Under the pieces are notes generated by a model, which worked only from the letters and a program-made list of their open reading frames with translations, ran no database searches and had not been told where the DNA came from. From a virus: 64,000 bases of DNA. Below are positions 45,457 to 49,540 of this stretch, in pieces. The DNA lies in IMG/VR virus record IMGVR_UViG_3300023180_000018, one strand, 5' to 3'. Position 1 is the stretch's first letter; every line of letters starts with the position of its first letter. The translations under genes and the position numbers were made by a program.

Positions 45457-45894
45457 TTATTTCACCTGTGTTGTTTTGTTTTTAGTTTGAGCGTCTTGTA
45501 ATCGTGCTGAATCCAACATACGATCGTGTCGACGCTTATCATTTTTTAGTTCACGAGAAATTCGAACTTTAGCTCTTTTTTCTGCTTCCCCTTCATTCAT
45601 TACTGCCTCACCATAAAAAGCAGACTTCACTGCTCTATGAACCAACATCTTAGCTTTCTTTTCATCGGCACTATGAGACTTCATTACCATTTGAATAGCC
45701 TGATCCATATTCTGAGCAGAACCAATTACTCTAAGAATTTTTTCATTTTGGGCAGATCTTTTCTTACCTTCATTTATTTTAGATTTTTTCTTTTTATCAG
45801 GATGTCCTTTTCCACCATCTGCTTTCGCAGCATGGACAGCTTTTCTTTGGGCATCTGATACATAACCTTCTACAAATTCGTTAAAAGTTTTCAT
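45457..45894 (-). CDS. Probable internal head protein
   Basis: N-terminus MKTFNEFVE resembles the T4 internal-protein capsid-targeting sequence; basic. Confidence 0.6.
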   Translation of the reverse strand: MKTFNEFVEGYVSDAQRKAVHAAKADGGKGHPDKKKKSKINEGKKRSAQNEKILRVIGSAQNMDQAIQMVMKSHSADEKKAKMLVHRAVKSAFYGEAVMNEGEAEKRAKVRISRELKNDKRRHDRMLDSARLQDAQTKNKTTQVK

Positions 45895-47444
45895 TAGTTA
45901 CAATTCCATCTCTTTAGTGACATAGCCTTACGTGTCGGCCTACCCTTTTCATCTTTCATAGGTCCTTCCATACCACTCATACGGGCACAAAAAGACTTAC
46001 GCCTTTTAGCCGCTTTACTACCAGCTTTTAATTTACTTGGCTTGGTAGTTACAGCGGTTTGCAATTTACTACCAGGATTTTTTCTACGATAAGCATCTAC
46101 GCCTTTCTTCGTTAAACCAGCACCGTCTTCAGTAGGTCTCTTGTGACCCTTTGAATCATCTCCTCTTTTATTTGGCTTATCATCTTCACTAATAGCTAAT
46201 TCATAATTCAGATTATTGAAAGCGTATTGTTCTTCGTCTAAATGCGTATTCGTAGGATCCCATTCTTTTTTATAATTAATATAGATGTCTCTGATATCTT
46301 CATATGCAATGTTATACTTATCAGCTTTTTTACGAAGATTTTTTTCTACATTTTGACTAATAGTTTTAATGTGTAATTCATTTACCATCGACATTAAAGC
46401 ATCATAATCTAAACTTTCTTTTTTAGGACCATCAGTTACTCTAGAAACTTTTCCTTTACCACCTTTAGCTTTACGTAATCTTTCTACTTCTGCTTTACGA
46501 ACTTTTGGTAATAATCTTTTTGCTAGTCTTCCAATCAATGCTTTTTTCTTTTCAACCTTTTTGTCTACTTCTATCCTTGCACTGATTGGTAAGTTTTTAT
46601 AATTAGCACCACGAGAGCCTGCTAGTTTAGCTCTTAAAATATCTCGTGCTTTTCTTCTTGATCTAGTTTGTAGTTTTTCGGGGCGGGCCATGCGAGTTTT
46701 CGCAATACGTCGACCGCGCTTAATTTTGCCGGCAATACGACGCATAATAATTTTTTTCTTCATTCTTTGCTGCAATGTTAAAGTTTCATCTAAAGATAAT
46801 TCTTCAGAAATACCCATTGCTGATCTAATCTTATTATACATTTCTTTTGATTCTTGATTTGACATTTTCCTAGGTAATCCTTTCTTATACTCAGAGAATT
46901 GACCAGAGACAGCTAATTGTCTAAGCTTAGACGCTGACATACCTGATACATCATCTGCATCAGGATCTCGTTCTCCAGCTGAAACAACCTTAATAGACTT
47001 AAATTTAAAATCTTTATTATTATATTTATTTACAATTCTGGTAAACTCTGTAACTCTATCGCTTCCAACAACAATAGTAACATTATCAAAAGTGTTTTGT
47101 ATTTCTTTTAAAACGTCAAATATTGTTTTAGAATTAGAACGCTTTACAATATCACCAAAAGCTTTTTGTGTATATTTAAGCTTATCGTTATATGATAAAG
47201 GATTCTTTTTCTTATCTTGAGAATGGGATAGATATAAATGAGGTTGCGCTTTCTTTGAACGCGCTATTGATGTTATCTTATCAACTAATTTTTGATGTCC
47301 AATTGTAGGAGGATTCATTCTTCCAAACGAAAGGACTACGGCAGACCCGATTTCTTCGGATATCAACGAAGTGTCGGTTTTGACATCTGTGATGGTACGC
47401 CCTTGACCATCAGTTTGAGGAGTAATTATCTTTTTTTCTTTCAT
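45894..47444 (-). CDS. HIGH-superfamily nucleotidyltransferase (cytidylyltransferase-like) with basic C-terminal modules
   Basis: FGRMNPPTIGH, KKNPL, VVGSDRV, SAGERDPD, MSASKLR. Confidence 0.85.
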   Translation of the reverse strand: MKEKKIITPQTDGQGRTITDVKTDTSLISEEIGSAVVLSFGRMNPPTIGHQKLVDKITSIARSKKAQPHLYLSHSQDKKKNPLSYNDKLKYTQKAFGDIVKRSNSKTIFDVLKEIQNTFDNVTIVVGSDRVTEFTRIVNKYNNKDFKFKSIKVVSAGERDPDADDVSGMSASKLRQLAVSGQFSEYKKGLPRKMSNQESKEMYNKIRSAMGISEELSLDETLTLQQRMKKKIIMRRIAGKIKRGRRIAKTRMARPEKLQTRSRRKARDILRAKLAGSRGANYKNLPISARIEVDKKVEKKKALIGRLAKRLLPKVRKAEVERLRKAKGGKGKVSRVTDGPKKESLDYDALMSMVNELHIKTISQNVEKNLRKKADKYNIAYEDIRDIYINYKKEWDPTNTHLDEEQYAFNNLNYELAISEDDKPNKRGDDSKGHKRPTEDGAGLTKKGVDAYRRKNPGSKLQTAVTTKPSKLKAGSKAAKRRKSFCARMSGMEGPMKDEKGRPTRKAMSLKRWNCN

Positions 47445-47445
47445 A

Positions 47446-47509
47446 GTTTCCGGAGATTGCCTTAGCCTTATCCAAACAAATACAGGTCTGCCATAGCCTA
47501 AACTGTATT
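47446..47509 (-). promoter_or_regulatory. Tandem RNA hairpins with shared AGGCUAWGGCA core in the 5' leader of the nucleotidyltransferase gene
   Basis: Cores at 47489-47499 and 47458-47468, each closed by a different complementary stem. Confidence 0.55.
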
Positions 47510-47519
47510 AAAGTATTTA

Positions 47520-48299
47520 TCAAATTTTGTATTTTAAGAATTCATCATAATCGGTTATTAAGTTATAACCAATAAGTTCTTTTATAAAATGTGGATTTAA
47601 AATAGAATTTATTTTTTCTATAACATGCCAATCTAATTTAATTTTAAAGTTAGCATAATAATCTCTTCTTTCTTGAGTAAAATCATTTGATTGACTTACT
47701 TTACCAGGTATGCTAATTTCGTCCATTGGTCTTTCGTAACGTACACCCCAATGCGGCAATGCTTTTGACAAAAAACTATGCGCGCCATATTTCGTATTAG
47801 TAATTATATCTTCGTATTTAAATGTTTGTATGTTTTTACGTTGCGAAAATTCCCACCACCATATAGTGTGTTCTTGCCATAATCTAATAGCTTCCGCTAT
47901 GTTAATATCATTTCTCGAAAATAAATTCCATTCATCTTGGTTTTGTCTATTTTTCCTAGTGACTCTAGGATATGTTTTTTTGATATCGACTTGCTTATCA
48001 GTTATACTATAAGCCCAAGCATAAGGATGCTTAACTAGATGTAATACTTTTAATTCACCACTATCTATTTTATCTACTAACTTTTGGAAACTAAAATCTA
48101 CGTTACTGGGATTGGGTCCAGGTATTCCATTTGGACTATCTAATGCCCAAGCGTGTTTCCAAAATCCACCATTTCTATATGTATTTCTACAATTGCCATT
48201 ATAACCGCCAGTTAAGTTTTGCTTAATTAATGCTTCAACAAAATTAGTACCACTTCGTTGAATGCCTGCAACGACAAACGCAACTTCTTCTTTTGCCAT
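47520..48299 (-). CDS. Sulfotransferase-family protein
   Basis: PAPS-loop-like GIQRSGTNF, VKHPYAW, FKYEDI; start MAKEEV at 48299 preferred. Confidence 0.7.
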   Translation of the reverse strand: MAKEEVAFVVAGIQRSGTNFVEALIKQNLTGGYNGNCRNTYRNGGFWKHAWALDSPNGIPGPNPSNVDFSFQKLVDKIDSGELKVLHLVKHPYAWAYSITDKQVDIKKTYPRVTRKNRQNQDEWNLFSRNDINIAEAIRLWQEHTIWWWEFSQRKNIQTFKYEDIITNTKYGAHSFLSKALPHWGVRYERPMDEISIPGKVSQSNDFTQERRDYYANFKIKLDWHVIEKINSILNPHFIKELIGYNLITDYDEFLKYKI

Positions 48300-48310
48300 T
48301 CTATTCCCTA

Positions 48311-49540
48311 CTACTTTTCCCAACCCTTAATCACCTCAGGTGAAAAGTTAGCGTAGGAAAATTCCATTCTATCTACTATCTTCACCGCATCATTTGTAAG
48401 ATGATCTATAGCAACAAATCCTTCTTGATTAGTAACTTTAAATCCTTTGCGCGTTTTAAGAAAAGTACCAATGTTACTAGCATGATTCATTTTATCTACG
48501 ATCAATTGTTTAGCGTCTACCAATAGATTCATCAATTCAAAGATTAATTGTATTTGAGACGCATTATATTTAGTAAATACCGATAATGCTTGTTTTTGTT
48601 TTTCTGCAATCTTATCTTTAGCAGCTTGTGTTTTTCTCTTAGACATTTCTTTTTTATAATAATCTATAATATAATTACTTAAAAGACGAGCATGAGTTTT
48701 AGGATTAATTTTTTTCTGTTGCCTAACAAACGTATTATTAAATGTTTTTGTACGCATATGTAATTCTTCATTTGTACTAAACTCATTTAATAATGCAGCA
48801 GGAATTTTATTAAATATGCGGCCGGCCTGAGATAAAATTGAAGTTACTTGATTTGTTTCAGCTACCGTGAATGTAGCATTGCCAGAAAGATCTTGATAAG
48901 TGGCATCCATCTGCCAAATTTTAGGAGATTGTTTAAACTTACTTGTAATGTTTTTTGCAAATGCAGCAGACATTGTTTCAAAAGATTTGCCAGTATATGT
49001 AGTATGCCAAACAATTCCTATATCAGCAGCTAATAATTGACGTGCTGCAGGCGTTCCCGCGGGAACCGCATACATGATAGTATTAGGTTGGAACGTAATA
49101 TAATTTACGCCATCAATTTTAGTTTTACTAAGATCACCTTTGGTAAACATCAAGTCGCCTTGATAAACTCCAGACTTAACGCCTAAAGTAGAAAAGCTAT
49201 TGAACGCTTGTATTAGTTTTGCCTGAAGATCTCCAGAAGTATCTGCTTTAACGTCTTCAACACTTTTATAAACTTTAGGATTCTTATTGAATACGCCTTT
49301 TTTAGCAACAAAGAATTTTCCGTCCGAAGGATCCACACCGACGAATACAGCGGGTGCACCATCCCACTTGACAGTGCGTGATATTTGAGTCCTAGAATGA
49401 CCGGCCAACATATCTCGTAAATCACGTAAAAAATTAATCGCTTTTCTAGTTCCATTAACTCCTTCATTGAAGATTAGATCTTCAACATGTTCCATGTGAG
49501 TATTTTTAGCTTCGATAAGATATGAATTAAATTTTAACAT
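48311..49540 (-). CDS. Conserved T4-like protein with ATP-dependent ligase-type nucleotidyltransferase motifs
   Basis: TVKWDG (I), QGDLMF (III), QEGFV (IV), VKIVDR (V); N-terminus MLKFNSYLIE. Confidence 0.6.
   Translation of the reverse strand: MLKFNSYLIEAKNTHMEHVEDLIFNEGVNGTRKAINFLRDLRDMLAGHSRTQISRTVKWDGAPAVFVGVDPSDGKFFVAKKGVFNKNPKVYKSVEDVKADTSGDLQAKLIQAFNSFSTLGVKSGVYQGDLMFTKGDLSKTKIDGVNYITFQPNTIMYAVPAGTPAARQLLAADIGIVWHTTYTGKSFETMSAAFAKNITSKFKQSPKIWQMDATYQDLSGNATFTVAETNQVTSILSQAGRIFNKIPAALLNEFSTNEELHMRTKTFNNTFVRQQKKINPKTHARLLSNYIIDYYKKEMSKRKTQAAKDKIAEKQKQALSVFTKYNASQIQLIFELMNLLVDAKQLIVDKMNHASNIGTFLKTRKGFKVTNQEGFVAIDHLTNDAVKIVDRMEFSYANFSPEVIKGWEK

Follow-up and report, generated by a model that had tools for sequence, protein, structure and literature searches.

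Two look-alike hairpins form a strongly conserved RNA leader in many uncultivated T4-like phages

In bacteriophage T4, translation is repressed by gp32, gp43 and RegA, proteins that attach to leader RNA at the initiation region, the operator of gene 32 being a 5’ pseudoknot with an A/U-rich tract and that of gene 43 a single hairpin with a UAAC/CAAC loop (PMC3014915). The twin-hairpin leader described here, like these operators and the RegA sites, is structured leader RNA at an initiation region and is specific to one gene (PMC3014915); a protein that binds and thereby blocks the ribosome-binding site would be a further common trait, although for the twin-hairpin leader this is a proposal. It differs from them in consisting of two bulged hairpins instead of a pseudoknot or a single UAAC-loop hairpin, and in preceding a late mosaic gene with a DUF5824-like domain, whereas the T4 operators belong to early and middle replication genes. 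With both fold and gene differing, identity with the gene 32 or gene 43 operator was rejected. The leaders of T4 genes 25 and 38, which have a split Shine-Dalgarno (SD) sequence, likewise carry a conserved hairpin within a late-gene initiation region, but that hairpin lies between SD and AUG and shortens the spacing (PMC3014915). In the twin-hairpin leader, by contrast, the hairpin itself contains the SD-like AAGG and is preceded by another hairpin of matching design.

The nearest mechanistic picture is offered by the thrS operator of E. coli, in which two hairpin modules are placed by the SD and a dimeric protein competes with the 30S subunit. Both systems place two similar modules next to the SD; however, those of thrS are mimics of the anticodon arm of tRNA, with loops of 7 nt, whereas the twin-hairpin leader has a conserved internal loop and variable caps, and no mimicry target was identified for it. 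CsrA/RsmA sites consist of two hairpins with GGA in each loop, one hairpin being at the SD; in our family the apical part of the second hairpin (H2) reads AAGGA or AGGGA in some members and AAGGC in window-type members, and the loops of the first (H1) read CGGC. Among riboswitches, guanidine-II (mini-ykkC) is built of two tandem hairpins with invariant ACGR tetraloops, and both it and NAD+-I (the nadA motif) resemble our leader in that small or bulged hairpins stand in tandem and the second overlaps the ribosome-binding site. Unlike these two, the twin-hairpin leader shows no link to a single metabolic function and had no credible match in bacteria, and its caps are variable YNNG loops, not ACGR. 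Guanidine-II was rejected because the caps vary and RF01068 gave no match, and NAD+-I because there was no Rfam match and many downstream genes lack any nucleotidyltransferase domain. To our knowledge, very few phage cis-regulatory RNAs have been characterised, and we know of none for late or virion-cargo genes of T4-like phages. A catalogue drawn from the same data source, the intergenic regions of IMG/VR, contains 8,495 anonymous candidate structured RNAs, 879 of them no more than 25 nt 5’ of a gene whose domains are known, with T4-type gp20 and gp32 leaders among these (Fremin, Bhatt and Kyrpides 2023; PMC10690425). Its text does not mention the mosaic gene family discussed below (PMC10690425). 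The twin-hairpin motif might be among its unnamed entries.

The stretch of DNA that was analysed, hereafter the window, spans 64,000 nt of IMG/VR record IMGVR_UViG_3300023180_000018 and comes from a T4-like myovirus, with baseplate wedge proteins, a gp43-type polymerase, a gp41-type helicase and NrdA; its polymerase is less than 50% identical to that of any deposited phage. The leader occupies a 75-nt gap between a sulfotransferase-like ORF (47520-48323) and the ORF of a 516-aa mosaic protein, all on the minus strand (Table 1). The initial annotation had described two tandem hairpins here with a nearly identical 11-nt core, and the sequence reads as it claimed: the exact 11-mer AGGCTAWGGCA occurs at only two sites in the 64 kb, one per hairpin. 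The minimum free energy structure given by RNAfold contains both hairpins, which a short linker separates. The second outer stem does cover the SD region as proposed, but instead of the GUUU/AAAC pairing claimed for it, RNAfold lengthens it to UUUGGA/UCCGGA, thereby taking in the GGA of the SD-like GGAAA. Motifs of the AGGAAA type lie 6-8 nt 5’ of the ATG in many genes of the window. The folding energy of the leader is ordinary (z +0.23 and -0.15), which makes the single sequence unconvincing, so that the case rests on comparison with other sequences.

Table 1. Features of the leader and of the gene downstream of it in the window
Feature	Coordinates	Strand	Basis or remark
Late-promoter-like box GATAAATA	47514..47521	-	Sequence; overlaps the TGA stop of the upstream ORF
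Covariance-model match, whole leader	47447..47514	-	
Hairpin 1 (H1), AAUACAG / UUUAG-GC-UAUG-GC-AGAC / CUGUAUU	47479..47509	-	Sequence, RNAfold
H1 parts: P1 AAUACAG/CUGUAUU; 5’ internal loop UUUAG; inner helix GC/GC; tetraloop UAUG; 3’ internal loop AGAC			
Hairpin 2 (H2), GGA / UAAG-GC-UAAG-GC-AAUC / UCC, then GGAAACU and AUG	47449..47476	-	Sequence, RNAfold
H2 core P2, GGA / UCC	47471-47473 / 47452-47454	-	
H2 parts: 5’ loop UAAG; inner helix GC/GC; tetraloop UAAG; 3’ loop AAUC			
SD-like GGAAA, partly within the extended P2 3’ strand	47447..47451	-	Putative function
AUG of the putatively regulated gene	47442..47444	-	ORF list
Putatively regulated gene, 516-aa mosaic protein	45894..47444	-	Pfam and PHROG matches
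Propeptide-like N-terminus of the 516-aa protein		-	
CTP_transf_like nucleotidyltransferase	about 46917-47327	-	
Basic region	about 46476-46784	-	
DUF5824-like domain	46194-46361 (residues 362-417)	-	Iterative HMM; Atlas structure rows
DUF6321	about 45906-46124	-	

Further members were gathered by exact-pattern scans with either hairpin, by a two-part pattern run over metagenome contigs, by two scans with the H2 pattern only and by two rounds of covariance-model searching. This yielded at least 87 metagenomic phage loci with 77 distinct sequences, scoring 48-77 bits, while all unrelated pattern matches stayed below 31 bits. It should be noted that the patterns were derived from the motif itself, that the alignments are model-fitted and that the members are phylogenetically related, so that the invariance of the positions that never vary is partly a matter of ascertainment. 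The window copy scores 68.1 bits (E 9e-13) with the first covariance model, R1, for which it is the sole significant match in the window, and 71.1 bits with the second, R2. A looser one-module descriptor gave 4 matches in the window against 3.8 expected, and only the two already known ones adjoin a start codon. The leader thus stands as one copy in the window, and a 160-kb, 89%-complete IMG/VR genome likewise has one strong copy. Homologous genes carry the same leader: IMG/VR homologues of the 516-aa protein at 47-53% identity have it, 3’ of TATAAATA, and across the 77 distinct leaders it recurs as a conserved structure of two related modules.

Incomplete forms were also encountered. One locus (L110) has an H2-only match of 35.6 bits: at 475-531 on its minus strand H2 is perfect, the position of H1 is taken by unrelated sequence, two GC-rich hairpins lie upstream, and a late-promoter box was not detected. 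One-module leaders precede more distant homologues of the gene (L007, L008 and L039). An H1-like element without H2, CUAG-UU-AGGCUUCGGCAGAC-CUAG, was seen at 2377-2405 on the minus strand of a small unrelated contig (L156; 26.5 bits), just 3’ of a 350-aa capsid-like gene, and also in L158 and L159; it may be due to chance or be a separate use of the module.

No Rfam family accounts for the motif, which the initial annotation had not recognised as a known family either. Rfam 15 returned nothing relevant at E <= 10 for the window copy or for the L174 leader, the best overlapping matches being Entero_CRE at 19.4 bits (gathering threshold 55) and SpF11 at 22.7 bits (gathering threshold 54). BLAST of two representative leaders against 50,697 GenBank phage records gave no match, and all 48 pattern matches in 185,579 bacterial and archaeal species, each represented by a single genome, were noise, none exceeding 30.8 bits. 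As judged from sequence, the leader would thus be one that Rfam 15 does not describe, but of a kind already known, namely the structured leaders and translational operators of T4-like phages.

Both hairpins follow a common plan: a stem, U..AG, a 2-3 bp helix with a YNNG loop, ARNC, and the other strand of the stem. Pair counts were taken from the alignment fitted to the second covariance model (A3, 77 sequences), since a MAFFT alignment (A1) and the first model alignment (A2) had put the 5’ strand of P1 one position out of register where the loop reads UUU. In P1, each of the four core pairs is intact in 100% of the distinct sequences, with two to five pair types: GC56/AU20 for the first, AU54/GC22/GU1 for the second, CG58/AU11/UA5/GC3 for the third and GC56/AU9/CG5/GU5/UA1 for the fourth. 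In H2, the inner helix has CG53/GC20/UA4 at its first pair and CG72/UG5 at its second, and the outer pair of P2 is GC73/AU3/GU1. Overall, 92.8% of the cells that should pair do so, against 81.3% in shuffles, and the covariation score of 0.390 (0.164 in shuffles) was reached by none of 500 shuffles; in a control with the partners slid, the score was at most 0.136. Both sides of the pair have changed at nine pairs. The initial annotation had read covariation from a comparison of the two stems within the single sequence; strictly speaking, that does not count as covariation. Across homologous leaders, the covariation is real. RNAalifold, run independently, returned the same four helices, and six diverse members folded singly took the same shape. 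The energies of the hairpins are weak and unremarkable (z -1.3 to +0.5), and hence were not used as evidence. G.U pairs occur at five of the paired positions, which places the structure on the mRNA (gene) strand.

This bears directly on the reading as double-stranded DNA that had been offered as an alternative. In such an operator, two direct repeats AGGCTNNGGCA, about three helical turns apart, would bind a transcription factor just 3’ of a late promoter. The near-identical 11-mers, 31 nt apart and beside a promoter-like box, are what such an operator might look like. However, the flanks of the repeats covary as pairs, G.U included, which is meaningless for duplex DNA; moreover, in many members the second repeat diverges while the fold is kept (e.g. 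AAGCCUAAAGGGAAAC), and the spacing of the repeats varies by about 11 nt. We consider a DNA operator very improbable, and place it last among the alternatives to a factor-binding RNA.

The unpaired AG and ARNC nucleotides, like the G/C inner helix, show stronger conservation than the stems that enclose them. Sequences ascertained through H2 only show inner helices of H1 that read GG/CC, GU/GC or three base pairs with triloops, and a 3’ internal loop that reads AGAC, AAUC, AAAC or AACC; the set found in the 3’ loop of H2 (AAUC, AAAC and AACC) overlaps with these. The 5’ internal loop measures 4-8 nt in H1 and 1-4 nt in H2, which makes H2 the looser copy of the module. The caps differ among members (UACG, UGCG, UAUG, CAUG, UAAG, UUAG, CACG, CAAG, UAAAG and triloops). 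Readings of the internal loop as a kink-turn or a UAA/GAN motif were set aside by eye, because the strands run 5’-AG and 5’-AR, not 5’-GA. An alternative pairing of AGGCU in H1 with AGCCU in H2 is possible in one clade only, and hence is not conserved.

With respect to the signals around it, the leader is tightly placed. An ATAAATA or CTAAATA box occurs in 75 of the 77 distinct leaders and ends 5-14 nt (mode 10-11) before the P1 core, and TATAAATA is the consensus of T4 late promoters, by which we infer that a late promoter is used here. At the other end, H2 finishes 0-4 nt from the AUG in all but two of the 77, the window, at 7 nt, being one of the two exceptions. A late box just 5’ and an H2 that abuts the AUG imply that the element would be the whole 5’ leader of a late transcript, with H1 at, or a few nucleotides from, its predicted 5’ end. 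In most homologues the sole SD-like element is an AAGG (once GAGG) made up of the loop and the inner 3’ strand of H2, 8-12 nt from the AUG. Furthermore, in about 60% of the sequences P2 gains one or two further pairs, which take it as far as the A of the AUG (UA38/CG5/UG2). In the window as a whole, TATAAATA was observed 7 times against 15.5 expected from shuffles, with 6 of the 7 on the minus (main coding) strand, a scarcity consistent with selection against stray late promoters. A Rho-independent terminator, which is an uninterrupted G+C-rich stem and then a U-run, was rejected as an identity: the stems are of 4-7 bp and broken by large internal loops, and the element lies 3’ of the promoter box. 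A U-run after P1 is present in the window and in L104 and L149, and absent in most members (L001, L002 and L135 among them).

The natural reading of an element that sits over the ribosome-binding site is cis-acting translational control, as had been suggested from the window alone, and most likely the leader does control translation of the downstream gene. So what would it need in order to do so? It might need nothing beyond its own fold, with H1 as a 5’-terminal stabiliser against decay that depends on the 5’ end, and H2 either shaping the ribosome-binding site and presenting the SD in a loop, or acting as a weak thermosensor or as a setter of the translation rate. The predicted location of H1 at the 5’ end, an H2 loop whose AAGG/GAGG is suitably spaced from the AUG and the weakness of the hairpins would all suit such a leader, and T4 genes 25 and 38 do optimise initiation by leader hairpins (PMC3014915). 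However, this function asks for pairing only, and would not explain why the unpaired AG/ARNC and the inner helix are more conserved than the stems, why the module is duplicated, or why it is absent from other late genes of the same genomes. We deem a factor-independent leader unlikely, though it comes first among the alternatives.

The genes that follow the leader narrow down what might act on it. They are mosaics, whose modules include a nucleotidyltransferase, a very basic region, DUF5824, DUF6321, DUF5661, DUF3008 and Phage_gene29. The N-terminus of the 516-aa protein is homologous to that of the L098, L091 and L085 proteins, and its basic region is 50% identical to that of the L137 protein, which has no nucleotidyltransferase. 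Both the L137 and the L104 protein begin at the basic region and lack that domain, as do those of L149, L164 and a large MVKKFKTF-type clade, which have the DUF5824-like domain at their start. As such, the connection drawn earlier with a nucleotide-handling enzyme, and with nucleotide- or NAD-type ligands, does not hold, because the same leader precedes genes without a nucleotidyltransferase; what is common to all is the DUF5824-like domain. This domain, of 65 aa, was found in 40 of 40 complete downstream ORFs with an HMM iterated on the set. Among the neighbouring ORFs of 25 loci it is present in the motif-adjacent gene in 24 and almost confined to that gene.

A tandem riboswitch, in which a ligand bound at the AG/ARNC loops of two mini-aptamers would stabilise H2 over SD and AUG, has to be weighed against this gene content. 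Several traits are of the kind expected: tandem similar modules with invariant internal-loop nucleotides and variable caps, a second module that overlaps the ribosome-binding site, a single copy per genome and, in some of the downstream genes, a HIGH-type nucleotidyltransferase. On the other hand, the regulated genes have no common enzymatic function and many lack the nucleotidyltransferase, there is no obvious metabolite for a late structural or cargo gene to sense, the 5’ internal loops with their 4-8 nt (H1) and 1-4 nt (H2) fit a tight pocket poorly, no Rfam riboswitch matches, and the motif was not found in cellular genomes, where the pattern matches are noise by covariance-model score. 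We hold a riboswitch to be improbable, second in line after the factor-independent leader; a new phage-borne tandem class that times or doses a virion-delivered mosaic enzyme by the metabolic state of the infected cell is, in equal measure, doubtful.

With moderate confidence, we favour a gene-specific translational operator, in which the conserved AG/ARNC internal loops of both hairpins would be the target of a trans-acting factor, whose binding would lock H2. This factor would most likely be a protein, acting as a dimer or in two copies, and possibly the gene’s own product through its universally present DUF5824-like domain. In H2, the SD-like AAGG is apical and the 3’ strand, (C)UCC, abuts the AUG and pairs into it in the roughly 60% of members given above; a bound factor would lock this hairpin over SD and AUG and thereby deny the 30S subunit access to the start site, while without the factor the weak H2 would open and the gene would be translated. 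H1 may additionally protect the 5’ end of the mRNA. A protein is favoured as the binder because the regulated genes share a domain and not a metabolic function, because the loop lengths are flexible, because the motif was not found in cellular genomes, and because in T4 the classic arrangement is for a protein to bind its own leader (PMC3014915).

The candidate domain itself gives little away. Its AlphaFold model is a three-helix bundle (pLDDT 88), and the Atlas groups the segment with DUF5824 clusters. Foldseek of this model against the PDB gave no match at E <= 0.001, the top rows being generic helical domains, and no PDB entry matched the 516-aa protein by sequence either. Being a plain bundle without significant PDB neighbours, the model gives no sign that the domain binds RNA. 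A literature search found no paper on DUF5824, and the paper on polyvalent proteins does not mention these domains. In one locus (L263, 1632-2984, minus strand), a protein has two consecutive DUF5824-like domains (22-88 and 90-157) together with DUF3008. In another (L195, 774-881, minus strand), the intact motif is followed by an ORF of just 35 aa, probably through a frameshift or an assembly error.

Counting against the operator reading are, besides the looser build of H2 and the unremarkable hairpin energies, some of the more distant homologues (L014, L019 and L023) that have the DUF5824-like domain without the leader; these are translationally coupled to an upstream DUF6267 gene and keep the domain. 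In many homologous loci the DUF6267 and nucleotidyltransferase genes overlap (..KGWER*/ATG), while in the window a sulfotransferase-like gene is inserted between the two. The profile phrog_455, of 764 positions, matches the DUF6267 protein (48311-49540, minus strand) with its first half and the nucleotidyltransferase (45894-47444, minus strand) with its second, which implies that fused forms exist. Furthermore, if capsids take up the protein, little of it may be left free for feedback. N-termini resembling T4 capsid-targeting sequences or propeptides (MVKKFKTF..., MKTFNEFVE), followed by ...E|SAV.. junctions, were seen in the downstream ORFs of six loci (L174, L214, L258, L188, L182 and L239) and in the window ORFs at 45457 and 48311, which suggests that the mosaic proteins are processed by the prohead protease.

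The two look-alike hairpins are real, then, and part of a strongly conserved RNA structure in many uncultivated T4-like phages. At about 65 nt, with clear covariation in at least 77 distinct sequences, specific to one gene and confined to an uncultivated lineage, the motif is a tractable candidate for a new RNA-protein or RNA-ligand pair. If the DUF5824-like domain is the binder, this would give an RNA-binding role to a domain of unknown function that is also present in giant viruses. Moreover, the leader offers a first entry point to the function of the widespread DUF5824/DUF6321 mosaic proteins.
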